IMG/VR virus record: IMGVR_UViG_3300035698_006061 | Span: 1-11,078 of that record | DNA from: a virus | Direction: 5' to 3' (one strand) | Length of the DNA: 11,078 bases | Shown: piece after piece, positions 1 to 11,078 of the stretch | How positions within the stretch are numbered: the stretch's first letter is position 1 | Layout of the letters: every line of letters begins with the position of its first letter | Position numbers and translations under genes: made by a program | Notes under the pieces: model-generated | What the model saw: only the letters and a program-made list of their open reading frames with translations | Databases searched by the model: none | What the model was told of the DNA's origin: nothing

Positions 1-127
1 ACTATAGCAGAAATTGTTCTTCCAATCCATCCACCTATAATACATGTTGGTTTGCATCCTCCAGCGTGTAGTGGAAGTCTATGGCAGTATTCGCATGGTT
101 TAGTTATTTCTTTCATTTTGTTTTTCA
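1..127. repeat. Terminal overlap, copy A: exact duplicate of 10952-11078, defining a 10,951-bp closed unit
   Basis: Base-by-base comparison of both ends: actatagcagaaattgttcttcc...ctttcattttgtttttca is present at both. 1-116 is therefore the same DNA as the 5' part of the 72-aa gene at 10849-11067, not a second gene. Confidence 0.95.
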
Positions 128-192
128 ATTCTGTCCATGTTCACCTCCCTTTTTTAATGTATCTTGGAAGTTTGATAATCTTCTAGCTTCTC
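119..192. repeat. 74-bp perfect direct repeat, copy A (partner 10814-10887)
   Basis: tgtttttcaattctgtccatgttcacctcccttttttaatgtatcttggaagtttgataatcttctagcttctc occurs at both sites; mismatches flank both ends (118 vs 10813, 193 vs 10888). On the minus strand it carries an SD (GGGAGGTGA), an ATG and 6 codons (MDRIEK). Confidence 0.95.
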
Positions 193-517
193 TCTGTTCC
201 TTGTTAAGTATAACATGGCAGTCGTGGCAGACAAAAACGAATTCATCAGTTAGCACGGGTTTCGTTATATGGTGGTGTTCTGTTGCTTTACAGCCACATT
301 TTACACATAATGCACCCTTGAATGGATATTTTTGCCTTGTTAGCCTCTTTATTATCCTCTCTTTTCTAGCTTCAGGTCGTTTTTCGCTTGCATAGTTGTT
401 TGCTTTTTGACTAGCTTGTGCCTGTGCAATACGTTCTTCCCGATGTGCCATGTAATATAATCTTCCATATATTCTTCTTCGTTCCTTTTGAGCTTCTGTT
501 ATTATTCTTTTATTCAT
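125..517 (-). CDS. HNH-family endonuclease (phage terminase-associated type)
   Basis: 130-aa ORF with CVKCGCKATEHHHI...VFVCHDCH, i.e. CxxC...HH...CxxCH, the zinc-coordinating HNH pattern. Basic N-terminus. SD GGAGGT lies 6 nt upstream, and ATGA overlaps the preceding stop. On the circle it sits just upstream of terL, as HNH genes do in HK97-like cos phages. Confidence 0.7.
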   Translation of the reverse strand: MNKRIITEAQKERRRIYGRLYYMAHREERIAQAQASQKANNYASEKRPEARKERIIKRLTRQKYPFKGALCVKCGCKATEHHHITKPVLTDEFVFVCHDCHVILNKEQREARRLSNFQDTLKKGGEHGQN

Positions 518-768
518 CTTATAACCTCCATTTTAAGTTCATTGATAAGGTCGCATATTTTCTTGCCTTTCTCTGTTAAGCATACATCTCTATGCCTTCC
601 TGCTCTGTTTGACTCTACTAAACCCATATCTTCTAAGCCTTCTACTAGCCTGTAGACTGTTGTATTGATTACTCCAATCTTTTTTGAAACTTTAATTAAA
701 GATAGCTCTGGAGTTTTCTTTATCTCGTTTAAGAGTCTTGCAATGTTTACATTAATTAGAGTTAGCAT
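514..768 (-). CDS. Winged helix-turn-helix transcription regulator (MarR/ArsR-like)
   Basis: 84-aa ORF. HTH plus wing pattern: LIKVSKKIGVINTTVYRLVEGLEDMGLVESNRAGRHRDVCLTEKG. Its start overlaps the end of the upstream RHH gene. Confidence 0.75.
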   Translation of the reverse strand: MLTLINVNIARLLNEIKKTPELSLIKVSKKIGVINTTVYRLVEGLEDMGLVESNRAGRHRDVCLTEKGKKICDLINELKMEVIR

Positions 769-1178
769 TCTTCTTCCTTGGCTTGTTTAATTAAATCTGT
801 GTAGTGTATTCCTGTCATCTTGCTCCAAACCTTAGCAGGGCCAATAACGTCTTTCTTTTCTTCAAGTAATCTTCTAAGTGCTATCATTGCTTTGAATGTA
901 TTTACTTTTAGACTCTCTTGTTCACTTACTTCGTTCTTCTCTGCAATTGCTAACATTTTTAACCAATGCTCTTCTTTAGCAGCTACTCTTTCTTTTTCGA
1001 TTTCGATTTCTTTTATCTTCATAGTAATCTTATCTACCTTCTGTTCTCCATCCTGCATGTCTGCATCTATAAGAGCTTGCTGTATAAACTTACTGAAGTT
1101 GAAACCTGCTATTGTAGTTTTTCTACTAGCGAGAATTTCTTCCACGTGTTCGTTTAATGTAATACTGTGTGTAACCAT
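762..1178 (-). CDS. Ribbon-helix-helix (CopG/Arc-like) DNA-binding protein with a coiled-coil C-terminal extension
   Basis: Start placed at internal Met43 of the 180-aa track ORF (MVTHSITLNEHVEEILASRKTT...FSKFIQQALID, a strand-helix-helix pattern). The 42 residues upstream translate AT-rich promoter DNA (IYILVYTKVCIFLLIYAY). A TATA-like box lies 21 nt upstream of this ATG. Confidence 0.6.
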   Translation of the reverse strand: MVTHSITLNEHVEEILASRKTTIAGFNFSKFIQQALIDADMQDGEQKVDKITMKIKEIEIEKERVAAKEEHWLKMLAIAEKNEVSEQESLKVNTFKAMIALRRLLEEKKDVIGPAKVWSKMTGIHYTDLIKQAKEEEC

Positions 1179-1199
1179 AATTAAACTAAAAGAAACTCC

Positions 1200-1206
1200 T
1201 TTATAA
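1200..1206 (-). promoter_or_regulatory. TATA/box-A-like element for the RHH-wHTH-HNH operon
   Basis: The minus strand reads ccTTATAAA-21 nt-ATG(1178). An AAGGAG lies 17 nt from the ATG, probably too far for an SD. The geometry fits an archaeal TATA about 25 nt upstream of a leaderless or short-leader start. Confidence 0.4.
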
Positions 1207-1434
1207 GGATATGCATAAATTAATAGAAATATACATACCTTTGTATATACTAGTATGTATATGCTTTCTAGTTTCAATTTGAACCTACCCTTTAACCCTA
1301 ACACTTACTAACCTGTGTATATATCTCTATATATAGGTATATCCTCATTTGAGTACATATGTATCTATATAAGTTACTATATACCTATATACTCCCTATT
1401 CTATTCTTTAAAGAATATGTATATCTCTTTTTTT

Positions 1435-1489
1435 TATATATATATATATAATATATATATATATTATAATAATAATAATAATAATAATA
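1435..1489. repeat. Compound microsatellite: (TA)8 then (AT)7 then (ATA)8
   Basis: Read directly: 1435-1450 TA repeats, 1451-1464 AT repeats with a phase shift, and 1466-1489 eight ATA units. Confidence 0.9.
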
Positions 1490-1579
1490 GTAAGTAGCCT
1501 CTCAGCTCGAAAACTCGCTGTTTAGTAACTCCTCTCTCAGAGTCATGTCTTTTCATTCCTAAAGGTGCGGGAAGTCGGG

Positions 1580-1614
1580 CTCTGCTTTAGCGAGTCTATG
1601 CGAGTATTGCAGAG
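1580..1614. repeat. Hairpin presenting a double GCGAG motif
   Basis: CTCTGC (1580-1585) pairs with GCAGAG (1609-1614). The 23-nt loop is TTTAGCGAGTCTATGCGAGTATT, containing GCGAG-N5-GCGAG. Confidence 0.6.
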
Positions 1615-1786
1615 ATTAGACTGACACGGTTGTCTTGGATTATATTAAAGGGTGGAAATATTATAAAAAATTTCTCTATGAGTCTTTTTTTTTATGAAAA
1701 ATTTCTTGGAGAGTCGAGATTTAACAAAACTAAATACCACTAATAACCGCTAAGAACTACAACTACATACATACATACTACTAAAT

Positions 1787-1808
1787 ATGGGCGACCAACA
1801 TAGCCCAT
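1787..1808. repeat. GC-stem hairpin, GGGC-N10-GCCC family member
   Basis: ATGGGC (1787-1792) pairs with GCCCAT (1803-1808), with the 10-nt loop GACCAACATA. Confidence 0.6.
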
Positions 1809-1888
1809 GTATACATATACATATAATCATACTACTATTACTAACTCCAAATCTCATACATTCAATCAATACTAATACATACACTATT

Positions 1889-1918
1889 AGCCCTCTAAGG
1901 GGCGAGTATGCGAGCCCC
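1889..1918. repeat. Iteron/hairpin unit 1: AGCCCTCTAAGGGGCGAGTATGCGAGCCCC
   Basis: GGGGC (1899-1903) pairs with GCCCC (1914-1918) around the 10-nt loop GAGTATGCGA. Alternatively, GCCC (1890-1893) can pair with GGGC (1900-1903). Contains GCGAG-TAT-GCGAG. Confidence 0.75.
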
Positions 1919-1960
1919 ATATATATTTACTTAACTAATTAATACTTTAAATAACTAATA

Positions 1961-1988
1961 AGCCTCTAAGGGCGAGTATGCGAGCCCT
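1961..1988. repeat. Iteron/hairpin unit 2: AGCCTCTAAGGGCGAGTATGCGAGCCCT
   Basis: Near-identical to unit 1 and 72 bp downstream. Each of the three C/G runs is one base shorter than in unit 1. The stem is AGGGC/GCCCT with the same 10-nt loop. Confidence 0.75.
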
Positions 1989-2160
1989 GTAGTACATTAT
2001 ACTAACTTTATTAATAAGATTGATTAGAGAGGCTCCTAGACCCCTTAGATATTCCTTTAGAGTAGAGGTGTATGGGAGTATGATATAAAGACTAAAGTAG
2101 AATTTCTATGAAATTCTAATATCAGGGGAATATATAAACACTGCTATATTTCTTTGTAAT

Positions 2161-2176
2161 AAAGGAAATATCCTTT
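2161..2176. promoter_or_regulatory. Perfect palindrome AAAGGA-AATA-TCCTTT (candidate operator)
   Basis: 6-bp arms and a 4-bp spacer, read directly. Related GGAAATAT / GGAATAT strings occur at about 1654 and 2126. Confidence 0.3.
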
Positions 2177-2302
2177 AATTTAATATTGTTAGTATTGTAC
2201 TATGGTAATAGAATTGGTTGGTGGTCAAAAGTGAGGAAAATTCAATCTAAACACTTACATAGTCATGTATATAGGTAAGGATATAAGTAATGATATAAGT
2301 AC

Positions 2303-2767
2303 TTAAGCAAAAGTAGCATCAAATATAATAGTGCCATCAAGTGTAGCTGTATCAATAGTATGATTAGTATAAGTAAGTACAAGTGTTTGTGTACCTTTGT
2401 CAGTAGTTACTGTTTGTTGAGTTATGTCTGTACCTGTATAAGTAATGGTAGATGTGGCAACTGAAACACCTTTTAATGACCATGTAATACTTTGCATGAA
2501 ACCACCTGAATATGTTGGTTCTGCCTTATCATATAAAGGTAAGTCAAATATTTCATTATTATTAGCATATTCTTTGTTAACTATGTCTTTATTTTTTGAT
2601 GGTTCTTCCTGTACTGTACCTTGTTTTATTGCAATAGAGTGGACAATATTCTTATCATCCATGTTATCAAAGTTACCTGCTCCTTGAGGTCTATGCATAC
2701 CATCTCGTTTCTTAGCATTGCTAGCTTTAAACATTGTCTTAAATGGGTCTTTAGGTGCTCGTGCCAT
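2303..2767 (-). CDS. Hypothetical beta-rich virion protein (candidate fibre/receptor-binding or tail-associated)
   Basis: Start placed at Met18 of the 171-aa track ORF (MARAPKDPFK...) because the upstream codons overlap the 57-aa gene. The C-terminal half is T/S/V/I-rich with alternating beta-like pattern (ITYTGTDITQQTVTTDKGTQTLVLTYTNHTIDTATLDGTIIFDATFA). Last gene of the structural block. Confidence 0.5.
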   Translation of the reverse strand: MARAPKDPFKTMFKASNAKKRDGMHRPQGAGNFDNMDDKNIVHSIAIKQGTVQEEPSKNKDIVNKEYANNNEIFDLPLYDKAEPTYSGGFMQSITWSLKGVSVATSTITYTGTDITQQTVTTDKGTQTLVLTYTNHTIDTATLDGTIIFDATFA

Positions 2768-2775
2768 AAGAATAA

Positions 2776-2949
2776 TTAAGCTGCAGAAGAAATTGTCTCG
2801 TAAGCTGAGCCAGTCCAAACTTTCAACTTGTTAGTTGTAGAATCATAGAAAACTGTACCTGTTTGAGGTGCTGCTGGTAAAGCTGTAGTAACCAATCTTG
2901 GTGCAACGAATGCGCTAGGCATTACAATATCACCGATAACTTCTGTCAT
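2776..2949 (-). CDS. 57-aa protein with a fibre-like motif (not in the supplied ORF track)
   Basis: Hand translation: MTEVIGDIVMPSAFVAPRLVTTALPAAPQTGTVFYDSTTNKLKVWTGSAYETISSAA. SD GGAGGT lies 6 nt upstream of the ATG at 2949; the TAA stop is at 2776-2778. Confidence 0.55.
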   Translation of the reverse strand: MTEVIGDIVMPSAFVAPRLVTTALPAAPQTGTVFYDSTTNKLKVWTGSAYETISSAA

Positions 2950-2988
2950 TATGCTACCTCCATTATAGCTTTAATTGTCTTAGAATTC

Positions 2989-2994
2989 AAAAAA
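2989..2994 (-). terminator. Oligo-T (T6) run immediately after the capsid gene stop
   Basis: The minus strand reads TAA-TGAGTAC-TTTTTT-GAATTC. Oligo-T tracts are the established archaeal intrinsic termination signal. There is no preceding hairpin, so it is not a bacterial rho-independent terminator. Confidence 0.35.
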
Positions 2995-3001
2995 GTACTC
3001 A

Positions 3002-3862
3002 TTATGCCTGAGTGTTCGTAATCTTGTAAATAGCTGCAGGGTCTGTAACCTGAACATGGCCAATTTCCCAAGAACGAACTGTGAAATTTATTCCTTTGTC
3101 TTCAACTACTGCACTTGTTAATGGTGTAGCTGCTCTCCATGTAGCTGCTCTTTGTCCAATAACTATTAATGCTTCATCTGCTGTTACACTTGTTGAGACA
3201 ATAATTGTTAATCCAGCAACTTGTCCAACTCTTCCGTTAGAAACAACATCTGCTGTCTTAAAACTTGGATTGTTGATAACTTTGCTGTTCATCATTAAAT
3301 TTCTGTAATCTTTTGGGCTTAATAAAAGGTATCCGTTCATTAAAGCATCGTAATTGCTCTCGAATAATGTTTGTTCACCTGTTAGAATGTCTCTGATAGG
3401 GTCTCTATCTGTTGCTGTTGCATCATCCCAGTTTGCTACTGCTGCTGCAGTTGAAATACCGTCAGCTCCTGATAATGTTGTATAAATATATGAATCTACT
3501 TGGCTAGCAATACTTCTTGCTACTCTTAAGATTGTTCTTGCTTGTACATCGATAGCATCTGTAAGCTTATCTTCTAAGAAAATAGTACCTTCTGCTGCGA
3601 ACTTAATGTTTTGTCCTTGTACTTTAGTCCAACTTGGGTCTACGTGTGGAAATGCAGCTCCTCTTGCTACTCCTTGTACACTAACTCCTTCACCTGTTGC
3701 AGATAATTCAGTTGCTGTTTCTCTGTAATAAGTTTCTGTCCATTTAGAACTAGATTGATTAAGCAATACTTGCTTCATTTTGAATTGTTTTAAAGCAAAT
3801 CCTTTAACTGCTCTTTCAACATTTTCTCCTCGAATATCTACCATTCCATTACTATCAGCCAT
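3002..3862 (-). CDS. Major capsid protein (HK97-fold type, no delta domain)
   Basis: 286-aa ORF directly after the scaffold-like and decoration-like genes. A/T/V/G-rich and Cys-free. SD-like GAGGGTGA upstream. Assigned from position, size and composition, not from a named motif. Confidence 0.7.
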   Translation of the reverse strand: MADSNGMVDIRGENVERAVKGFALKQFKMKQVLLNQSSSKWTETYYRETATELSATGEGVSVQGVARGAAFPHVDPSWTKVQGQNIKFAAEGTIFLEDKLTDAIDVQARTILRVARSIASQVDSYIYTTLSGADGISTAAAVANWDDATATDRDPIRDILTGEQTLFESNYDALMNGYLLLSPKDYRNLMMNSKVINNPSFKTADVVSNGRVGQVAGLTIIVSTSVTADEALIVIGQRAATWRAATPLTSAVVEDKGINFTVRSWEIGHVQVTDPAAIYKITNTQA

Positions 3863-3863
3863 C

Positions 3864-4259
3864 TTAACACTTCACCCTCACTAATATTGACTCACTGGTT
3901 GTTCCAGATTGTCTAGCGTATCCTACTACTTCTTTTAATCCTGCTGCTGTAGCGTCATCTGCTAATGTTACTGTGTTAACTCCAGAAATTTTAAGTGGGT
4001 CACCTGCTGTAACTGTAGCACTTACTACCATCTCGTAAATTCCATCGTTAGAATAAGTTAATTTTGTAGAATCATCAGCACTGTCTTTTTCCATTGTAGC
4101 AATTCCTAGTGGTATTTCACCATCTGCAGAACTAGCTGAACCTGTGTTAGGGTCTGTTAATTGTAAAAGAGTTCCTTTAGCAATTGTAACTCCTGCTGCT
4201 ACTGTACATTCTGGAAATCTGTCTTGTAGCTGAGTACTTAATGTTGCTTCGTTTGCCAT
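3864..4259 (-). CDS. Head decoration / capsid cement protein (DUF2190-like)
   Basis: 131 aa. Pattern AAGVTIAKGTLLQL...GIATME...GIYEMVV...VTAGDPLKISG...VVGYARQ...ILVRV matches the small beta-barrel DUF2190 pattern as I recall it. Sits immediately upstream of the MCP. Confidence 0.55.
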   Translation of the reverse strand: MANEATLSTQLQDRFPECTVAAGVTIAKGTLLQLTDPNTGSASSADGEIPLGIATMEKDSADDSTKLTYSNDGIYEMVVSATVTAGDPLKISGVNTVTLADDATAAGLKEVVGYARQSGTTSESILVRVKC

Positions 4260-4283
4260 TATAATTAAATTAAATAAAAATAG

Positions 4284-4290
4284 TTTATAA
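4284..4290 (-). promoter_or_regulatory. TATA/box-A-like element for the decoration-MCP unit
   Basis: The minus strand reads ccTTATAAA-24 nt-ATG(4259). No SD precedes the ATG. It has the same ccTTATAAA core as the site at 1200-1206. Confidence 0.4.
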
Positions 4291-4302
4291 GGATTGCTAT
4301 AA

Positions 4303-4467
4303 CTAATCCTCTTTTTCTTCTGTTTCGGGCTCTTCAGGGCACTTTTCTAGTGCTTTCTCAAAAGCTGCGATAACAATCTCGTGAATTGCAATACCTTCAG
4401 TGTGTGCTAAAAGTGCTGCTTTAGATGCTTCAAGTTCCCTTAGAATTGATGTTCTAGATAAATCCAT
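4303..4467 (-). CDS. 54-aa acidic helical protein (not in the supplied ORF track)
   Basis: Hand translation: MDLSRTSILRELEASKAALLAHTEGIAIHEIVIAAFEKALEKCPEEPETEEKED. Its ATG overlaps the end of the scaffold-like ORF by 14 nt. It fills an otherwise empty 190-nt gap. Confidence 0.45.
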   Translation of the reverse strand: MDLSRTSILRELEASKAALLAHTEGIAIHEIVIAAFEKALEKCPEEPETEEKED

Positions 4468-4783
4468 CTGCTGCTAATGGGTTTACTTCACCTAACATTA
4501 GTTTCTCTGCAAATTCTTCATCAGTTAAAGGTCTGTCTTCTTCTTTATTCATGCCTGCTTCTGCTCTACCACCTAGAATGTTTCTTGCTTGGAGTGCTTC
4601 TGTTCTATCGTTCTGTATTCTTAGTGCCTCTGAGGCTTTCTCAATCCTTTCAGCTGCATCGTTTGCGGCTTCAAGCACAGGAGTTGTCTGCTGCTGAATC
4701 CTTTCATTGCTATTTTCAACTGCTCTTTCTGCTGGTTGTTCAGTTTTTTGTGTTTCATTTTCTTCCATTTGTACTACCTCCAT
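4454..4783 (-). CDS. Scaffolding-like protein
   Basis: 109 aa, highly charged and predicted helical (E/Q/A/R-rich). Sits upstream of the decoration and MCP genes. Strong SD GGAGGT 7 nt upstream. No protease gene is present, consistent with a separate scaffold. Confidence 0.5.
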   Translation of the reverse strand: MEVVQMEENETQKTEQPAERAVENSNERIQQQTTPVLEAANDAAERIEKASEALRIQNDRTEALQARNILGGRAEAGMNKEEDRPLTDEEFAEKLMLGEVNPLAADGFI

Positions 4784-4800
4784 TATATTACTAATAAGTT

Positions 4801-6036
4801 TTAGAATAAGCCAAAGTTCAAAGCACTCTTACCGTATTCTTCTTGCTTTACTATCTTTGTATCCAGTCCATATTTAATTAATATTGCTAGTTCCTCTGGT
4901 GTTAGAATATTACCTGCGTTTCTCTTTCGGATTGCTTCAAATAATAATGTTCTTTCTTGGAACTCAGTATCATCTTCTGCATCACTTCTCTCTTGTCCAG
5001 ATTTGAAAGCCTCATCTCTAGCAGTTTGTTTCTCTGCGAAGGCTTGGTCTCTAGTATTACTTTCTTCTCTCAACCTATCAAACTTACTTGCTGTTGTTTC
5101 CTGTGATTCTGATACTAACCTCATGTTCTCGTTAGCTGTTACTAAATTGTTTTCCACTGTGCTTCTGAATTGTTTACCAAATGGCCATAGTGCTGGGTTA
5201 ACTATTGTGTTAATCTTTGTGAATTTAAGTGCTCCTTCAATAATCTGTATCTGTCCTTGCATTTGCTCTATAGCATCTGCTCTTGTTATCTCGTTGTTAT
5301 CAAATCTATCTAATATCTTAGATGTATAGAAGCTTGCTGCTGATGCACCATTGTCTGCTGCTAACCATTGTGTTAATGTACTACCACCAACATATGTACC
5401 TATTGCTACTGTAAGTTGTTTCTTTGTTAATCCAATGAATGTTTTCTTTGTTGCGATGATTGCTAGGTCTTTAGCTGCTTGTTGAATTGCTATTTTGTTT
5501 ACTTCTGCCTGTAAGTATGATGGGTTAATTCCTAACTTAGCTGCTTCTGCTGCTACTTTACTTGAACTTGCTGCTCCACCAGTTGTTATTAAACCTTTGA
5601 TTGCTGTAATTCCTGCACTTGTTGCTAATACTGCTGTAGCTGCTACTGCTGTACTTATTAGTGTTGTACCTATTACTTTTCTTGCTTCATCTGTATCACC
5701 TCCTCTAATATTTGCTCTACTCTCTGATACTGCATCTGCTCCAGCTCTTATTCCTTCTGTAAATGTAGTTTTTGGTTGGCTTAATGGTGCTGATAGTATA
5801 TCTAATGCTCTAGCTCCACCTCTCTTTAACTTATCTCCGAATGTTGGTGCCTCTGTAGTACTGATTGGTTGCTTAGATGCTCTAGATACAGCTGAACTTG
5901 GACTTCCACTAACGCTACCTGGACTGATTGCACTGCCTGCTTTAGGTGTACTAGTTGTAGTTGTCTTCTTTGCTCCTGGCATTTCTCCTCTTATAAATCT
6001 CTTTCCTATACTCTTAAGTTTACTTAAAATTCCCAT
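4801..6036 (-). CDS. 411-aa virion-associated protein (candidate internal/ejection or tape-measure-like protein)
   Basis: Start placed at Met21 (MGILSKLKS...), whose ATG overlaps the stop of the 50-aa gene (TAATG). It has an S/T/P-rich N-terminal third, a central A/T/G/I hydrophobic stretch (VIGTTLISTAVAATAVLATSAGITAIKGLITTGGAA) and a charged helical C-terminus. Confidence 0.55.
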   Translation of the reverse strand: MGILSKLKSIGKRFIRGEMPGAKKTTTTSTPKAGSAISPGSVSGSPSSAVSRASKQPISTTEAPTFGDKLKRGGARALDILSAPLSQPKTTFTEGIRAGADAVSESRANIRGGDTDEARKVIGTTLISTAVAATAVLATSAGITAIKGLITTGGAASSSKVAAEAAKLGINPSYLQAEVNKIAIQQAAKDLAIIATKKTFIGLTKKQLTVAIGTYVGGSTLTQWLAADNGASAASFYTSKILDRFDNNEITRADAIEQMQGQIQIIEGALKFTKINTIVNPALWPFGKQFRSTVENNLVTANENMRLVSESQETTASKFDRLREESNTRDQAFAEKQTARDEAFKSGQERSDAEDDTEFQERTLLFEAIRKRNAGNILTPEELAILIKYGLDTKIVKQEEYGKSALNFGLF

Positions 6037-6188
6037 TATAATAATATTCCCGCAATTATTGCTAGTGTTATTGTGATTGCTGTTGTACACATCCACCTGT
6101 TAAGTTTAACTTTACCATTAGTCTGTATTACATGTTTTTCTATTTCACATATCTTATCATAGATTTCTCTGTTTGTTACTGTTACCAT
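6036..6188 (-). CDS. 50-aa C-terminally membrane-anchored protein (not in the supplied ORF track)
   Basis: Hand translation: MVTVTNREIYDKICEIEKHVIQTNGKVKLNRWMCTTAITITLAIIAGILL. TAATG overlaps occur at both ends (with the portal stop and with the start of the 411-aa gene). Confidence 0.5.
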   Translation of the reverse strand: MVTVTNREIYDKICEIEKHVIQTNGKVKLNRWMCTTAITITLAIIAGILL

Positions 6189-7279
6189 TATTGTCCAACT
6201 CCTGCTTGTGTATCATTAGGCTGTGCTGCCTTCGTTGGTCCATCTTTAGCATTGTCGCTTAATAGTTCGTTTTCTAAACTTGCTGGGAATACTAAATCAA
6301 TATCCATACCTAGTTGTATACCAACTTGTTCCTCAATGAATGTTTGGTCTTCTTCTACACTCTGTTGGAATGCAAGATAAACTATCTTAGCACTTGCTTC
6401 TGTAAAGTTCTTTGAGTTTCCTACTATAATCTTTGGTGTTGCACATGCCTCGTAGAAAGAATCGTTAAGTGAATCAATCCATGTTAGTGGGTTTAATGTA
6501 CTATTAGGGCTTACGCTTAATTGTTCTGGAACTACTGCTCCCTTTGGTACATATAAGTTTTCATTTAACTTGTAAGCTTTATCCATCTTTGTTTTGAATG
6601 CTGTAATCTTAGCTGGTACATCTGTATCTAAGTGGAATATCATTCTTGGATATACATTTCTATGCATTACTATCTTGTAATCTGCTATTGCTTCATTTCT
6701 TGCTAAAATTATATCTTCTAGTTTTTCAACCACACTTACTCCATGAATCTCATCTGCTACTCTGTTACGACTTAAGTGAAATATTTCCTCTTGTTGGAAT
6801 GTTTTAGTACCACCATTTTTTGTTTTACTAACTTGTTCGTATTTCTGAATTATCCCTTTGTTGTTTGCCACAATCAGTATAGCTCCTGTATCAAGCACCT
6901 TTAGATTTATTAAATTGCCTTCTTCGTCTCTGATGATTTCTGCATAAGAATCTCCTCCAATCCACATAGTTCTAATCATATTTTCTATAATTGTATTAAA
7001 TGTATCTCTACCATAGCCTTTAATCTGGTCTATAACAAGTTGTGTATCTGTATCTGTTTCAATTCCTTTACCTATTGTCCATGTAGCTCTAGCATCAATT
7101 GTACTGTTTAGCTCTGGTATTTGTTTGTAGTATCCGAAATATTTTGACCAATTTGATTGTTGCCACCTTGTTTCTTTTTCCCCAGTTGCTGCATCTGTGT
7201 TCATTATAGATACACTGTAATCTGTCATCTGATTTGTTAAATCACTTATTACTGTATTTCCTATATCGTTATCTGCCAT
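6188..7279 (-). CDS. Portal protein (HK97/SPP1-type family)
   Basis: 363-aa ORF. Its size, the central segment EEIFHLSRNRVADEIHGVSVVEKLEDIILARNEA and the polar/acidic C-terminal tail are typical of phage portals. It lies in the head module with terL and the MCP. Confidence 0.8.
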   Translation of the reverse strand: MADNDIGNTVISDLTNQMTDYSVSIMNTDAATGEKETRWQQSNWSKYFGYYKQIPELNSTIDARATWTIGKGIETDTDTQLVIDQIKGYGRDTFNTIIENMIRTMWIGGDSYAEIIRDEEGNLINLKVLDTGAILIVANNKGIIQKYEQVSKTKNGGTKTFQQEEIFHLSRNRVADEIHGVSVVEKLEDIILARNEAIADYKIVMHRNVYPRMIFHLDTDVPAKITAFKTKMDKAYKLNENLYVPKGAVVPEQLSVSPNSTLNPLTWIDSLNDSFYEACATPKIIVGNSKNFTEASAKIVYLAFQQSVEEDQTFIEEQVGIQLGMDIDLVFPASLENELLSDNAKDGPTKAAQPNDTQAGVGQ

Positions 7280-7497
7280 TAATCAAACATATCCTTTATG
7301 TCTTGTAACATTCTTTCTGTCTCTGGTATGTGAGCTGTTACTGCCAAATTTAATTGTCTTACTTTGTATGCGCTTAATTCTTGCTCTGTTTTGATATACA
7401 TAGTCTTATCCTCAATCCTTAATCCAAGGTTACCTACACCTGCTTCATAAATTAATTGTGCTAAGTTCACTGTTGTTAAGTCGTATTTGTATTCCAT
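7279..7497 (-). CDS. Hypothetical 72-aa protein
   Basis: ORF with SD AGGAG about 10 nt upstream and TAATG junctions at both ends. No recognisable motif. Confidence 0.55.
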   Translation of the reverse strand: MEYKYDLTTVNLAQLIYEAGVGNLGLRIEDKTMYIKTEQELSAYKVRQLNLAVTAHIPETERMLQDIKDMFD

Positions 7498-7787
7498 TAT
7501 AATTGTACTCCTGTTAGTCTTGTTACTGCTGGCATTTGACTTGTTTTAATTTTAAAATCTGTAATATTTTTTATTTCATTATCTATACTATTTTTAACTT
7601 TTAAAAGTATTTCTGTATTATCCATATCTGATGGGAATGAAAATCCATATACTTTGTCTTTAATTATATTTTCTGTTTTATCTAAACCAAAAATAATTGT
7701 ATCTACAAAAGTATCTCCAGTGTTTGTTAGCCTAACTGATACTTTTCTTCTCATACTTTCATCTTTGTCTTCTATTATTGTTATCAT
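7497..7787 (-). CDS. Hypothetical 96-aa protein
   Basis: ORF with SD-like GGTGGAG upstream and TAATG junctions at both ends. No recognisable motif. Confidence 0.55.
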   Translation of the reverse strand: MITIIEDKDESMRRKVSVRLTNTGDTFVDTIIFGLDKTENIIKDKVYGFSFPSDMDNTEILLKVKNSIDNEIKNITDFKIKTSQMPAVTRLTGVQL

Positions 7788-8362
7788 TAGTTAAACTCCA
7801 CCACTGTAAACCATACTGTAGTCTCATCATCGTGTACATTAACTGTTACTGTATCAGCTGCTGATAAAAATGCATTATAACTAGATGATTGTGTAAATGT
7901 ACTTGATTCATCTGGTGAGGTAGCTCCTTGAACAAAACACATTGCTTTACTTGTATCAACTGTAGTTATTGTATAGTCTCCATCATTTAATAAATGTCCA
8001 AGTTGTTTTGAACTTACAACTCCAGCTATATATTCTATAACCATATAACTTACATTACAAGTATTATAATCATTAATTCTTGAAGCTGTTACTGTTGTTT
8101 CATCTGTTAACGTAAGTTTGCATAATGTATCAGCTGGTCTTGAAGCACCATGAGTATTACCATTGAAAACTACAACTGAATTCTCTGTAACTACTGCATC
8201 TATTGTTGCTGTATTTGAAGTACTACTTACCGCAATTACTCCGTGCTGTATTGATTGTATAATTGTATCACTTGCTGCTTTAGGTGTACTAGTTGTGTTT
8301 AATGAGTTTGTTTCCCTTACATCATCTTGGCCGAATAATCCACCTGGTATACTTAGAACCAT
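7787..8362 (-). CDS. 191-aa beta-rich protein with internal tandem duplication (candidate tail/receptor-binding protein)
   Basis: Two homologous halves: SIQHG...ATIDAV...VVVFNG...TVTASR...NVSYMVIEY and SKQLG...TITTVD...MCFVQG...TVTVNV...TVWFTVVEF. SD-like GGTGA lies 3 nt upstream. Confidence 0.6.
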   Translation of the reverse strand: MVLSIPGGLFGQDDVRETNSLNTTSTPKAASDTIIQSIQHGVIAVSSTSNTATIDAVVTENSVVVFNGNTHGASRPADTLCKLTLTDETTVTASRINDYNTCNVSYMVIEYIAGVVSSKQLGHLLNDGDYTITTVDTSKAMCFVQGATSPDESSTFTQSSSYNAFLSAADTVTVNVHDDETTVWFTVVEFN

Positions 8363-8802
8363 TTTTTCACCGCCAATTCTTTATTTAAAATAGGAAGTAA
8401 TCCTTCACGTCTTTGTCCAAATGGACTTGCTTGTCCTGCTCTTACACTTGCATCGTTCATATTTATACCTTGACTTATAATTTCTCCAATTAATCTACCA
8501 AATTTACCTACTCTGTTATCTGGGTCAATACCTACTTCTATAGTTTCTCCTTCAATTTGATTTCTTAGCCAATCTCCTGAATCTTTTCCACCTTCACTTA
8601 ATTCTTTAGCATCTATTCTAGCAAATCTAATAGGGAAGTTAAATTCTCTAAAGTTTGTACTTACTGTAATTGTATCTCCATCATGAACCTTCTCTACTCT
8701 TGCTTCAAAGTTCCCTACTATCTGTTTATGTGGGCTTTCGAAGTAGAATTCATTCATTTGAGCATTAGTTAGCTCAGGAAACGCTTTAAAATCATGCTCC
8801 AT
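8353..8802 (-). CDS. Staphylococcal-nuclease-like (thermonuclease/SNase fold) nuclease
   Basis: 149 aa. VHDGDTITV...IRFARIDAKE...GKFGRLIGEI...MNDASVRAGQA mirrors the SNase signature (DGDT...R-L-x-G-I-D-A-P-E...Y-G-R-x-L-A...N-x-x-L-V-x-x-G-x-A). Confidence 0.8.
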   Translation of the reverse strand: MEHDFKAFPELTNAQMNEFYFESPHKQIVGNFEARVEKVHDGDTITVSTNFREFNFPIRFARIDAKELSEGGKDSGDWLRNQIEGETIEVGIDPDNRVGKFGRLIGEIISQGINMNDASVRAGQASPFGQRREGLLPILNKELAVKKWF

Positions 8803-9157
8803 TTATGAAGTCCTGTTGTCGTTTATCTCTTAGCAAGCTAAGTCCTCTTAAAGAACTGTCTCTTAATACATTAATCATGTCTTCTGCCTCAATACGTGAG
8901 TTATATCCAGTCATATCGTACTGAATTACGTAAATTGCTGCTAAATCACTAGCTATTTGGGTCAAAATCTGCCTTACATCTGTGTTTAATGTAGTATATG
9001 CATCACTAAAATTAAATCTACAAACTGCATTGATTGTACTCTCTGCTTGACCTACAAAATCGTTAATAAAAGCCTCTGTATTAGACACCACGCTAGCTCC
9101 TGCACCTACTTTTTGCTGTACTTGTGCTGTTGTTGCGAATATTCCTGTGTCTGCCAT
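8792..9157 (-). CDS. Head-tail connector/adaptor-like protein (gp6-like), tentative
   Basis: 121 aa. An N-terminal helical pattern (TEAFINDFVGQAESTINAVCRFNF) resembles HK97 gp6-like connectors. First gene after terL. Assignment is by weak pattern and context only. Confidence 0.4.
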   Translation of the reverse strand: MADTGIFATTAQVQQKVGAGASVVSNTEAFINDFVGQAESTINAVCRFNFSDAYTTLNTDVRQILTQIASDLAAIYVIQYDMTGYNSRIEAEDMINVLRDSSLRGLSLLRDKRQQDFINGA

Positions 9158-9178
9158 TGTGAAATTTGGCCTTTAAAG

Positions 9179-9186
9179 TATATAAA
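9179..9186 (-). promoter_or_regulatory. Box-A/TATA element TTTATATA upstream of the connector-to-scaffold gene block
   Basis: The minus strand reads TTTATATA-21 nt-ATG(9157), with no SD before the ATG. TTTATATA fits the published methanogen box-A consensus TTTAWATA. Confidence 0.4.
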
Positions 9187-9197
9187 GACTGCTATAA

Positions 9198-10478
9198 TTA
9201 GTACACATATATGTTTAATGTCTGGTCTTTGACGCACCAAGCGCCTCTGACGATACCATCTGCAATATGCATATAATTACCAAAGTATTTAGTTCCCATA
9301 TTTGATTTCTCGTACTGCACTGACTTGAGCGACATGAAGATTTCTGGGTCATCAAGTAGTTTTATTTCACCACGTTCCATCAATGCTAGTAAGTTATTGT
9401 AGATGTCTTCCTTTAGTACTCTCTTTTTTCTCTTTTCATCGTAAGTTAGTGGTCTATTCATGTTATTTATAGCTACTGTCTTTCGTTTTGTCTCATCTGT
9501 AGTAAGTAATTGGTCTAGAACTCCGACTCCCATTCCACCATCATCAATGAATATTTGTCTAAAGTCATATGCTTTGTCTAAATTGATAATATGTCTTGTA
9601 GTTTCTGTAGTTAGAGTTTGTTTTGTAATTTGATTCTCTACTTGTTCTATAGCTTTTGGGTTTGTACGGTCAAATACTTCAAAAGTACTTTCATCTTTTC
9701 CCATTCTTGCTATGTCCACTCCTAAGTAGTAACGCTTTCCTTGTTGTATATAACCTCTACGCTTCAAACACATACATCTTTTGATTAAATCATCTGGGAA
9801 AACTTGTCTTAATGAATCTATAAAGGCTCCTTCATATTCTTGAGCATACTGAGTTACTGTCATTCTTCCTCTTTCTCTAGCTAAATGCTCTAATGCCTTC
9901 TCTTTCTGTAATTGTGTCCAACTATCTGTGATTTCTCTCTCATTTATCACTGTTTCACTACTTATTTGGAAGTTAGTAAAGTTTGTATCGTGAAATGCTC
10001 TGTGAAAGAAGCCTGAATTTCCATGTGGGGTTGATAATAGTACAATATCTCCACCTGTTGTAAGTAACATTGGTGTAATTGCTTCCCATACTAGTTCTGG
10101 TACAAAGGCTGCCTCATCTGCATATAGTCTACTTACTGTGAAACCTCTGATACCATGGCCATCTAAGCCCGTAGGAAGGCATCTAATGACACTTTTGTTG
10201 TTTAACTTGACCTTTGATAGTGTTGGTTTGTCTTTTCCTTTCATTATGTATGATTTATAGTTGTCTTGTAAGTACCACATAGTCTTTTGGAATAACTCTT
10301 GTGCTTGTCTTTCTACAGAAGCTATGATTAAAATGCTGGAACCTGGGTTCAAGGCGGCATAATCAGCTGCATCTTTCGCTATTACAGTTGACTTGCCTAC
10401 CTGTCGCCCTGAGCAAAGAACAATATTGCCTTTTGTTTCTAGGACTTTCTCTTGCCATTTATCTAATTTGATTTTCAT
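9198..10478 (-). CDS. terL: Terminase large subunit (packaging ATPase + nuclease)
   Basis: 426 aa. Deviant Walker A LCSGRQVGKST (compare T4 gp17 SRQLGKT). Walker B with catalytic Glu: RLYADEAAF. C-terminal RNase-H-like acidic motifs: YLGVDIARMGKDES and IFIDDGGMGVG. Confidence 0.92.
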   Translation of the reverse strand: MKIKLDKWQEKVLETKGNIVLCSGRQVGKSTVIAKDAADYAALNPGSSILIIASVERQAQELFQKTMWYLQDNYKSYIMKGKDKPTLSKVKLNNKSVIRCLPTGLDGHGIRGFTVSRLYADEAAFVPELVWEAITPMLLTTGGDIVLLSTPHGNSGFFHRAFHDTNFTNFQISSETVINEREITDSWTQLQKEKALEHLARERGRMTVTQYAQEYEGAFIDSLRQVFPDDLIKRCMCLKRRGYIQQGKRYYLGVDIARMGKDESTFEVFDRTNPKAIEQVENQITKQTLTTETTRHIINLDKAYDFRQIFIDDGGMGVGVLDQLLTTDETKRKTVAINNMNRPLTYDEKRKKRVLKEDIYNNLLALMERGEIKLLDDPEIFMSLKSVQYEKSNMGTKYFGNYMHIADGIVRGAWCVKDQTLNIYVY

Positions 10479-10487
10479 GAGTATGAA

Positions 10488-10505
10488 GTCCCCTTCAATG
10501 GGGAC
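10488..10505. repeat. Hairpin repeat H2: GTCCCC-TTCAAT-GGGGAC
   Basis: 6-bp GC-rich stem. The 17-nt string tatgaagtccccttcaa (10482-10498) is identical to 10651-10667. Confidence 0.85.
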
Positions 10506-10532
10506 AAATTGATTTAGTAGACTTCTCTACAA

Positions 10533-10597
10533 TACACACGGCAGGATTCGAACCTGCAATAGTCCTACGGGAATGACCCGTCCAGTTCCTCGTGTGT
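10533..10597 (-). ncRNA. tRNA-like element: perfect acceptor stem and T-arm, truncated core
   Basis: Minus strand: ACACACG-N33-GCAGG-TTCGAAT-CCTGC-CGTGTGT-A. It has a 7-bp acceptor stem, a canonical 5-bp T-stem and a GTTCGAATC T-loop. Only 33 nt lie where positions 8-48 need about 41. The core folds either as ACGGG-TCATT-CCCGT (CAT centred in a too-small loop) or as GGAA-N12-TTCC (D-arm-like), not both. No encoded CCA. Confidence 0.5.
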
Positions 10598-10656
10598 AAT
10601 CAATGAGGGCTTTAAGCTTCCATTTACGGAAGTCCCACACCCTCGATGACTATGAA

Positions 10657-10679
10657 GTCCCCTTCAAAAAAATGGGGAC
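10657..10679 (-). terminator. Hairpin repeat H1 with an internal T7 run: GTCCCC-ATTTTTTTGAA-GGGGAC (minus strand)
   Basis: Begins 8 nt after the stop of the 48-aa gene. T7 is a strong archaeal-type oligo-T terminator. The T-run lies in the loop, not after the stem, so it is atypical for a bacterial intrinsic terminator. Confidence 0.4.
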
Positions 10680-10686
10680 GATTAAT

Positions 10687-10833
10687 TTAATCTGTTTTGT
10701 TTGTGTACTTGTGCACTAGTTCTTTTGCAATAGCATATCTCTTTAAAGAGTCGTTTAATCCTACTTCAAAGAATTTTACTGTCACAAGTATCTCTTTTAC
10801 AGTTGTTCTAAGCTGTTTTTCAATTCTGTCCAT
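10687..10833 (-). CDS. 48-aa hypothetical protein (not in the supplied ORF track)
   Basis: Hand translation: MDRIEKQLRTTVKEILVTVKFFEVGLNDSLKRYAIAKELVHKYTNKTD. A strong SD GGGAGGTGA lies immediately upstream of the ATG at 10833. Its RBS and first 6 codons lie inside the 74-bp repeat. Confidence 0.5.
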   Translation of the reverse strand: MDRIEKQLRTTVKEILVTVKFFEVGLNDSLKRYAIAKELVHKYTNKTD

Positions 10834-10887
10834 GTTCACCTCCCTTTTTTAATGTATCTTGGAAGTTTGATAATCTTCTAGCTTCTC
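10814..10887. repeat. 74-bp perfect direct repeat, copy B
   Basis: Identical to 119-192. The two copies lie 256 bp apart on the circle and bracket the 72-aa gene. Confidence 0.95.
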
Positions 10888-11067
10888 CTTCTTTAATTTA
10901 TTAAGTGATTCGCTTAATGTTTTCATAGCATCTAGACTATGTTCTAACATTACTATAGCAGAAATTGTTCTTCCAATCCATCCACCTATAATACATGTTG
11001 GTTTGCATCCTCCAGCGTGTAGTGGAAGTCTATGGCAGTATTCGCATGGTTTAGTTATTTCTTTCAT
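10849..11067 (-). CDS. 72-aa Cys-rich protein (CxxC...CxxxC) with a hydrophobic segment and a helical tail
   Basis: MKEITKPCEYCHRLPLHAGGCKPTCIIGGWIGRTISAIVML...KLKKEKLEDYQTSKIH. It has no SD of its own. Its ATG lies inside a 12-codon uORF that starts at the repeat-borne ATG (position 138, copy A). The last 13 codons are encoded by repeat copy B. Confidence 0.55.
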   Translation of the reverse strand: MKEITKPCEYCHRLPLHAGGCKPTCIIGGWIGRTISAIVMLEHSLDAMKTLSESLNKLKKEKLEDYQTSKIH

Positions 11068-11078
11068 TTTGTTTTTCA
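10952..11078. repeat. Terminal overlap, copy B (identical to 1-127)
   Basis: Offset of 10951 between the copies. The 127-bp length matches a common de Bruijn k-mer, so it signals circular closure of the assembly rather than proving a physical terminal repeat. Confidence 0.95.

Follow-up and report, generated by a model that had tools for sequence, protein, structure and literature searches.

An apparently mobile tRNA-like RNA cassette upstream of terL in an 11-kb viral genome

An 11,078-nucleotide (nt) stretch of viral DNA (IMG/VR record IMGVR_UViG_3300035698_006061, positions 1 to 11,078; the whole stretch is called the window here) carries, directly upstream of the terminase gene terL, a 208-nt block in which two copies of a hairpin (H1) bracket a tRNA-like element. 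The pattern of substitutions among aligned homologs shows that selection acts on the predicted structure of this block at the level of RNA. Nucleotide identity with unrelated viruses shows that the block behaves as a horizontally mobile cassette, passed between viruses. For its function, we give about even chances to a mobile tRNA-like "punctuation" signal, at which RNase P and tRNase Z would cut the transcript while hairpins would shield the ends so formed. The structure of the cassette is well supported; the cleavage we infer by analogy. A processing cassette had been one of the options offered by an initial annotation of the window, and it is the one that the evidence favors. The contigs compared below are labeled L001, L021 and so on; those with the hairpin and its flanks came from pattern scans of viral and metagenome collections.

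Structure of the block and its covariation

The minus strand carries all long open reading frames (ORFs) of the window and also the tRNA-like element. The block was therefore read on the minus strand, from the stop codon of p50, the last small ORF ahead of it, to the terL ATG. In sense order it consists of H1, a nested stem (P1), the 65-nt tRNA-like element, a further hairpin (H3), the second H1, a 9-nt spacer and the terL ATG:

10680-10691, minus strand: AT-rich left flank (GA)TTAAATTAATC, upstream of H1, conserved across the family
10657-10679, minus strand: H1 copy 1, GTCCCC-ATTTTTTTGAA-GGGGAC, conserved and covarying in relatives
10650-10656, minus strand: linker TTCATAG, part of the junction motif TTYATANTCAT
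10600-10649, minus strand: P1 stem, with 5′ strand TCATCGAGGG at 10640-10649 and 3′ strand CCCTCATTGA at 10600-10609
10533-10597, minus strand: tRNA-like element, 25.7 bits with the Rfam tRNA model
10517-10530, minus strand: H3 hairpin GTAGA-GAAG-TCTAC, common to L019, L021, L031 and L032
10506-10516, minus strand: TAAATCAATTT, left flank of H1 copy 2 and end of the 105-nt identity with L021-type phage
10488-10505, minus strand: H1 copy 2, GTCCCC-ATTGAA-GGGGAC
10476-10487, minus strand: spacer TTCATACTC and terL ATG, with no Shine-Dalgarno (SD) sequence

The repeated hairpin was first noticed in the initial annotation, and its description held in most respects. Exactly two GTCCCC-N-GGGGAC hairpins occur in the window (10488-10505 and 10657-10679), where shuffled sequences had a mean of 0.01 and none of 200 reached two. 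The 17-mer TATGAAGTCCCCTTCAA is found at 10482-10498 and 10651-10667, again matched by none of 200 shuffles. Each stem has six pairs (five G-C and one T-A), and the copies differ, within the hairpin, by five extra A residues in the loop (plus strand). The repeat had been given too short a length, however. It extends over about 44 nt, as TAAATYAAT..GTCCCC..GGGGACTTCATA[G/C]TCAT, taking in an AT-rich stretch on its left and, on its right, TTCATA[G/C]TCAT. The p50 stop codon TAA (10687-10689) falls within this AT-rich flank, TTAAATTAAT. The other elements listed there are present too: H3 (GTAGAGAAGTCTAC) at 10517-10530, a partial repeat copy (GGGACTTC) at 10629-10636, the tRNA-like element between the H1 copies at 10533-10597 on the minus strand, and the end of the terL-proximal hairpin 9 nt before the terL ATG (10478), without an SD sequence. 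The nested stem-loop corresponds to P1, to which we add that it adjoins the acceptor stem of the tRNA-like element directly, with no unpaired nucleotide between them. The P1 stem is interrupted by a 2x2 internal loop and capped by a variable hairpin (10610-10639), which contains the third GGGACTTC.

A 231-nt region folded at -81.3 kcal/mol (z = -5.4), and none of 200 shuffles was as stable. In the fold, UUCAU of the spacer can pair with AUGAA at the start codon. Neither H1 copy was called as an intrinsic terminator on the sense (minus) strand; the sole plus-strand call was the antisense of copy 2, where there are no genes. No canonical terminator or sigma-70 promoter was found on the sense strand of the region.

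Four readings of parts of the block were set aside. A CRISPR mini-array would have repeats of equal length with a spacer of about 30-45 nt between them, whereas a 5-nt indel distinguishes the H1 copies and about 146 nt holding structured RNA lie between them. Antisense control of the P4-CI/P1-C4 kind, with repeats complementary to the small RNA, does not fit, as the third GGGACTTC has the sense of the repeats themselves; it is also specific to the window. The internal loop of the P1 stem is symmetric (2x2), unlike a bulge-helix-bulge splice site. An archaeal promoter reading of TTAAATTAAT and TTTATAATC was dropped; the distance to the ATG shifts with loop length.

The tRNA-like element has an acceptor stem of 7 bp, ACACACG (10591-10597) with CGTGTGT (10534-10540), which can be extended to 8 bp by pairing U at -1 with the discriminator A73 (10533). 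CCA is not encoded. The T arm, GCAGG-TTCGAAT-CCTGC (10541-10557), is canonical. The acceptor stem, the TTCRANT-loop T arm and the discriminator base of a canonical tRNA are all present. The remainder is not canonical: the D arm is absent, the central hairpin ACGGG-TCATT-CCCGT (10567-10581) has an "anticodon" loop of 5 nt, and the whole folds as a three-way junction. ARAGORN called no tRNA gene in the window, and the score of 25.7 bits with Rfam RF00005 is lower than the gathering score of 29. None of the family members was called as a tRNA. In a search of the window and 23 loci with Rfam 15 at E<=1, the sub-threshold tRNA hit was the only one. No tmRNA was called by ARAGORN, and Rfam gave no match to Y-RNA (YrlA) or to other curated RNA families.

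Across family members, the centre of the tRNA-like element varies from 12 to 51 nt and cannot be aligned. The lack of conservation there indicates that selection acts on the RNA minihelix of acceptor stem and T arm. This minihelix is the part of a tRNA that is recognized by RNase P, tRNase Z and the CCA-adding enzyme. An origin from initiator tRNA, considered for the A1-U72 pair, the CAU-like loop and the GGG/CCC stem, was set aside, as G1-C72 is the pair in most members of the family and the centre lacks conservation.

For covariation, 15 sequences were aligned over the four helices, with variable loops replaced by GAAA and three bulged bases removed. Standard pairs were found in 96.8% of the alignment cells. 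Such an alignment of homologs had been suggested in the initial annotation; it revealed compensatory changes, with both sides altered, in 15 of the 25 pairs. None of 500 shuffles reached any of the observed pairing measures, and pairing dropped to 28-51% when the partner was slid by 1-3 columns. For example, the H1 stem is flipped in L107 (GGGG/CCCC), replaced in L109 (GGCGCT/AGCGTC) and present as GCCCC/GGGG in L106 and L108. The P1 variants are GAGG/CCTC, AAGG/CCTT, GAGA/TCTC and GAGAG/CTCTC. The acceptor stem varies from A1-U72 to G1-C72 and is GCAAGCG/CGCTTGC in L041. The wobble pairs in H1 and the T stem were asymmetric, with 13 G.U against 0 A.C. This asymmetry argues for pairing of the sense-strand RNA; neither a DNA palindrome nor antisense transcription would produce it.

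Insertion, spread and readings at the DNA level

The closest relative found was L001, with a TerL 69% identical to that of the window. L001 has a collinear p50 homolog of 46 amino acids (aa) in the same SD context, and its stop codon overlaps the terL start as ATGA, as settled by reading the sequence. In the window, 208 nt lie between p50 and terL at exactly this junction. The overlap of the two genes in L001 thus marks the whole 208-nt block as an insertion. L073 and L104 have the same hairpin and downstream ORF and differ only in the presence of P1 and the tRNA-like element, so the cassette is optional.

A scan of the viral collection for the window-specific hairpin gave no match. A relaxed pattern gave 69, mostly chance matches in coding DNA (such as L105), among which about nine true homologs were recognized from their flanks. 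The hairpin and its flanks were found in full-length contigs of 10-13 kb (L044, L057, L070, L073, L088, L094, L104, L106, L108 and L109) and in the fragments L027, L028 and L030. Most family matches also carry P1 and the tRNA-like element, and the three parts together recur in at least 12 related viral genomes of this size. The proteins of the full-length contigs mark them as true relatives: identity to the window is 34-39% for TerL and reaches 65% for the portal. In at least nine related genomes, the cassette lies 1.3-2.4 kb upstream of terL, where it heads a block of small genes, and terL itself is directly preceded by coding sequence, with no hairpin. The series of hairpin, AU-rich spacer of 9-11 nt (TTYATANTC) and ATG is found again at the first ORF that follows the structured leader (in L073, L104, L070, L088, L094, L108, L109, L027 and L028); the spacer motif there is TTTCATAATC-ATG or TTTATAATC-ATG. 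In L104, 8 nt separate the tRNA-like element from the ORF. A comparable place is taken in L014 by a bona fide tRNA-Met, with 9 nt between it and an SD-less ORF leading to terL.

The cassette is also found outside this family. Positions 10504-10608 of the window (105 nt, comprising the P1 3′ strand, the tRNA-like element, H3 and TAAATCAATTTGT) are 100% identical to L019, L021 and L031, and a run of 81 nt is identical to L028 (exact-run and affine alignment). The L021-type phage has an unrelated, intein-containing TerL and lacks the H1 hairpin. There the element follows closely on terL and directly precedes a Met-Thr-Pro tRNA array. Two other unrelated contigs, L107 (40 kb) and L041 (22 kb), carry H1-like hairpins and tRNA-like elements in other contexts. 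When compared by blastn with 50,697 GenBank phage records, the block had no match. The identity of a 105-nt RNA module between unrelated viruses indicates that regulatory RNA is exchanged, and not only genes.

Further features accompany the cassette in these contigs. In L021 (15-2174), the TerL, 719 aa in the available part, is interrupted by an intein-like insert, accompanied in another frame by an HNH endonuclease ORF (1442-1936). A second copy of about 70 nt from the terL 3′ end stands just before the cassette in L021 (~3425-3500), L019, L031 and L025; the repeats flank a two-gene insert of about 1.3 kb that is absent from L026 and L032. More RNA-like modules follow the cassette in L021 (3660-3770), L027 (~930-1030) and L028 (~895-1000), and follow the tRNA-like element likewise in L057, L070, L094, L108 and L109. 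After the cassette there are a small hairpin, GACA-CTGG-GAAAGA-CTAG, which is CTCGG-CAAAGA-CCGAG in L021 with apparent covariation, and a longer GTGGG...CCCAC stem ending in ATTTTATAATC-ATG. These modules of the relatives had no Rfam match.

Shortened tRNA-like elements were seen in other viral lineages as well. In L020 (4437-4483, minus strand), a 47-nt minihelix, ACACACG-CTTTGTGGAAAG-TTAA-T arm-CGTGTGT, lies upstream of scaffold and capsid genes. In this phage lineage (L020, L029, L034 and L035), the acceptor stem and T arm of the minihelix are identical to those of the window. A second tRNA-like element, about 190 nt downstream of the L020 minihelix, was not called by ARAGORN. L037, an unrelated 40-kb viral contig, has on its minus strand (reverse-complement locus positions ~6810-6875) a tRNA-like element with D arm, T arm and acceptor stem and no anticodon arm, followed by ATTG. 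Viral genomes may hold truncated tRNA mimics beyond the family of the window.

The initial annotation had named the block a prime candidate for a packaging site (cos/pac). On this reading, the terminase would bind and cut GC-rich inverted repeats that adjoin terL and lie downstream of an HNH-like gene. Several observations agree with this. The block adjoins terL in the window, with a weak HNH-like ORF (125-517) upstream; the inverted repeat is GC-rich within a genome of about 35% GC; and the virus family has kept the hairpin at the start of the terL-containing operon. We nevertheless regard a packaging site as very unlikely. A cos or pac site is single, fixed in position relative to the terminase genes and specific to its cognate terminase. 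The window has two copies 169 nt apart, L001 has no site at this junction, and in the relatives the cassette lies at a distance from terL. The same cassette occurs in phages with an unrelated TerL. The H1 loop is not fixed in length (5-11 nt), and the stems flipped or replaced in L107 and L109, with G.U pairs valid on the sense strand only and no A.C, fit sense-strand RNA pairing. The likeness to the cos sites of HNH-associated cos phages and to pac sites is confined to the window, where it consists of GC-rich symmetric sequence near terL and an HNH-like gene upstream. The initial annotation had tied its proposals to conservation of the hairpins in related genomes; they are conserved there, but as RNA and away from terL. 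Structured GC-rich repeats beside terL should not be taken as cos/pac sites in annotation.

In some more distant relatives (L006 at ~2600-2800, L007, L003 and L009), GC-rich tandem repeats or hairpins occupy the non-coding DNA ahead of terL. L006 has three copies, of about 44 nt, of CACCCCCCAACCCCCCTTCTGAGGGGGACGAATGATGAACACTT upstream of terL, and several of this set share AACCC..GACAAA-TTTTATAAA abutting the terL ATG. These elements are better candidates for a packaging or replication site in the family than are the hairpins of the window.

The presence of the cassette differs between close relatives, and 105 nt are identical in an unrelated phage. Such a distribution could also be explained by selfish or neutral DNA: a decayed tRNA gene, or a tRNA-derived element like a miniature inverted-repeat transposable element or a short interspersed nuclear element, spreading among co-infecting viruses with no benefit to them, and with the H1 duplication as a mere recombination scar. 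The insert is flanked by direct repeats, as is the small gene p72b (by exact 74-nt repeats), and truncated tRNA-like elements occur in several other viral contigs. Decay, however, would have been uneven: the pairing in the acceptor stem, T arm, P1 and H1 was kept by compensatory changes while the centre varied freely. The position at the operon head is conserved among relatives, though their TerL is only 35-39% identical to that of the window, and no transposase, integrase or terminal inverted repeats were found. We consider this explanation improbable, although mobility and function are compatible with each other.

An integration site (attP) derived from the 3′ half of a host tRNA gene would account for one match. 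The 24-mer of the T arm and 3′ acceptor strand matches tRNA-Arg(CCG) genes of two proteobacterial metagenome-assembled genomes (MAGs). The 5′ strand of these tRNAs is a different one, and matches were limited to 2 of the 185,579 species genomes. The scan of genome contigs for the 24-mer gave these two genes and one Eubacteriales MAG fragment, and no evidence of a host or of attB. Searches with Pfam and PHROGs found no integrase in the window genome. The element retains a 5′ acceptor strand that covaries with the 3′ one, a feature for which an att core has no need. An attP site thus seems extremely unlikely.

A possible role in RNA processing

In the processing reading that we favor, the core of the cassette would be a tRNA mimic cut down to an acceptor stem (7-8 bp) stacked on a T arm, with a dispensable centre, and the upstream H1 and P1 would act as two clamp helices. 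The early transcript of the small genes would read through into the cassette. RNase P would cut on the 5′ side of the tRNA mimic, and a second cut, by tRNase Z or a functional counterpart, would follow the discriminator A73. The upstream mRNA would be left ending in P1/H1, which would protect its 3′ end, and the terL/late mRNA would be left starting with H3 and the second H1, which would protect its 5′ end. The latter two hairpins may also insulate the unstructured AU-rich start region, permitting initiation at an SD-less AUG once translational coupling was lost. The cassette would be exchanged by recombination at the short junction motifs (TAAATYAAT... and TTYATANTCAT), and the duplicated H1 module of about 44 nt might be the footprint, or a portable end, of the insertion.

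Several points weigh against this reading. The covariation alignment was trimmed by hand to the helices and leans towards structure. Cleavage is predicted from the resemblance of the tRNA-like element to a substrate. P1 adjoins the acceptor stem and U-1 can pair with A73, which may hinder or shift RNase P, and P1 may accordingly have a role other than processing. As the cassette is optional (L073 and L001 lack it), any function would be accessory, or the element selfish. H1 (CCCC/GGGG with an ATT..GAA loop) and the acceptor sequence are more conserved than the structure requires, hinting at a sequence-specific partner. Pfam scans of the small proteins of relatives gave no pointer to the domain of the host.

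Some features hint at an archaeal host. A conserved ATCCTTATAAA motif lies 24-27 nt upstream of the p131 ATG (4259) and of an internal ATG (~1178) of a 180-aa ORF (sites at ~4238-4294 and ~1154-1210, minus strand), a spacing consistent with an archaeal TATA box and leaderless mRNAs. Archaeal Pfam families are among the matches of the winged-helix protein of the window, and among cultured viruses Halogranum virus HGTV-1 gives the best TerL match.

A sequence-specific partner is central to another explanation, in which H1, or H1 with P1, binds a viral or host factor for read-through or translation of the late operon, after the models of lambda boxB/nut, put RNAs or a translational operator, and the tRNA-like part is accessory. 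In most members, H1 keeps CCCC/GGGG and the ATT..GAA loop beyond structural need. The series of H1, a 9-11 nt spacer and an SD-less ATG precedes first genes (in L073, and terL in the window), the spacer can pair with the AUG (UUCAU/AUGAA), and about half of the members have in their H1 loop a run of 5-7 T, which could pause or terminate an archaeal polymerase. However, L107 and L109 replace the H1 stem sequence entirely, and neither the loop length nor the T-run is conserved. No boxA-like partner or candidate binding protein was identified, the sense strand has no canonical terminator or sigma-70 promoter, and the conserved acceptor/T-arm minihelix is left unexplained. A regulatory leader of this kind is therefore unlikely in our view. 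As for the translational control of terL suggested in the initial annotation, a role in the start is compatible with the recurrence of an SD-less ATG after a hairpin and a 9-11 nt AU-rich spacer, seen before the first gene of the operon in relatives.

The minihelix might instead act in trans. After excision and CCA addition, it could serve as a decoy or inhibitor for a host enzyme or defense nuclease that binds the acceptor stem and T arm of tRNAs, as a charged minihelix or as a Y-RNA-like adaptor. Its acceptor stem and T arm are strongly conserved, and the same 24-mer occurs in the gut-phage contigs L020, L029, L034 and L035 and in a bona fide phage tRNA-Val (L033). In L021-type phages, the element sits with tRNA arrays. 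The anticodon arm is not conserved, which excludes decoding as well as a decoy role toward anticodon nucleases. The open acceptor ends and the topology are unlike YrlA, and Rfam returned no Y-RNA, tmRNA or other family. We judge a tRNA mimic acting in trans to be quite unlikely.

A more specific form of the processing reading can be put forward only tentatively. H1, P1, the tRNA mimic and the hairpin-spacer-AUG module might together form a transferable "expression insulator". Host tRNA-processing enzymes would cut the transcript, the downstream gene would receive a stabilized 5′ end and an SD-independent start, and the unit would be swapped by unrelated viruses sharing a host. If so, it would represent an uncatalogued class of viral cis-acting RNA that Rfam does not list. 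Should the excised minihelix have an activity in trans as well, such as that of a decoy for a tRNA-directed host factor, the element would be dual-purpose. Viruses of about 11 kb, without transcription machinery of their own, would offer a testable model for separating early and late messages, and for starting translation without an SD sequence, by means of borrowed host tRNA-processing enzymes. As a candidate RNA family with covariation support and a clear architecture, the cassette can be modelled and searched for across viromes.

Genome context and comparison with known systems

Nucleotides 1-127 of the window are identical to nucleotides 10952-11078 over all 127 nt. The window is therefore taken as a complete genome of 10,951 bp, circular or terminally redundant; this overlap bears in neither direction on the position of the physical ends. 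It encodes TerL, a portal and an HK97-type capsid, and its relatives are 10.2-13 kb. The size quoted for the smallest isolated tailed phages is 11.6 kb (bioRxiv 10.1101/2025.06.18.659913), so the window genome is smaller. Most of its genes lack an SD sequence, and a look-up of the exact TerL product matched no record. The genes are as follows:

9198-10478, minus strand: terL, 426 aa
6188-7279, minus strand: portal gene
3002-3862, minus strand: HK97-type capsid gene
514-768, minus strand: winged-helix protein gene
125-517, minus strand: weak HNH-like ORF
10849-11067, minus strand: small ORF p72b
10687-10839, minus strand: small ORF p50, last gene ahead of the cassette, homolog of the 46-aa ORF of L001

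The exact 74-nt direct repeats that flank p72b are at 119-192 and 10814-10887. In one frame the repeat is the C-terminus of the HNH-like ORF; in another it is the C-terminus of p72b, followed by the SD sequence and start codon of p50. These repeats look like a recombinational gene insertion or duplication, parallel to the insertion of the cassette, and the p50/p72b region is one with a history of recombinational insertions. At ~1300-2300 there is a 1-kb non-coding AT-rich stretch (28-31% GC) with overlapping palindromes, (TA)n, (TAA)n and TATAAGTAATGATATAAGT-type repeats, which may be a replication origin or a control region.

One close likeness is to the t-elements of plant mitochondria, tRNA-like structures that direct cleavage by RNase P and RNase Z and form the 5′ and 3′ ends of mRNAs (Forner et al. 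2007, PMC1920247). As in a t-element, the block has a conserved acceptor/T-arm minihelix with a non-canonical remainder, on the coding strand between two protein-coding genes (p50 and terL). Both have a non-canonical cloverleaf, a conserved GGTTCRANYCC T arm and an acceptor stem; both lie in a polycistronic context just upstream of an ORF and occur as dispersed, mobile copies. The differences are that the cassette belongs to a prokaryotic virus and has conserved clamp helices (H1 and P1) and a portable hairpin-spacer-AUG module, and that cleavage has been demonstrated for t-elements whereas here it is predicted from sequence.

If the host is archaeal, the 5S rRNA of Haloferax volcanii is relevant, where an upstream tRNA-like structure is cut by tRNase Z (Hölzle et al. 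2008, cited in PMC3296008). There, too, a tRNA mimic serves as a processing signal that sets the 5′ end of the downstream RNA. In contrast to the cassette, that element is chromosomal, serves an rRNA and is not known to have flanking hairpin repeats or to be mobile.

The arrangement of a tRNA-like element next to stable helices has a eukaryotic counterpart in the nuclear long non-coding RNAs MALAT1 and MEN-beta. In MALAT1/MEN-beta-mascRNA, the tRNA-like element comes right after a protective structure, and RNase P cleavage stabilizes the upstream 3′ end and releases a small RNA. The protective element there is a triple helix, whereas P1 and H1 of the window are plain helices abutting the acceptor stem.

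Phage tRNA clusters encode small stable RNAs, for example RNAs C and D of T4. The element of the window shares with phage tRNA genes a tRNA-type acceptor stem and T arm, identical in sequence to those of the tRNA-Val of L033 (the 24-mer), and it heads the tRNA array in L021-type phages. Unlike such genes, it fails ARAGORN and Rfam, lacks a D arm, has a 5-nt loop and has a centre that is not conserved among members.

Processing signals that resemble tRNA are thus already known, and the cassette of the window has no Rfam family and no GenBank phage match. Three things appear to be new: the way in which H1, P1, the minihelix and a portable start module are combined, the recurrence of the cassette among related HK97-type viruses of about 11 kb, and its exact transfer between unrelated viruses.

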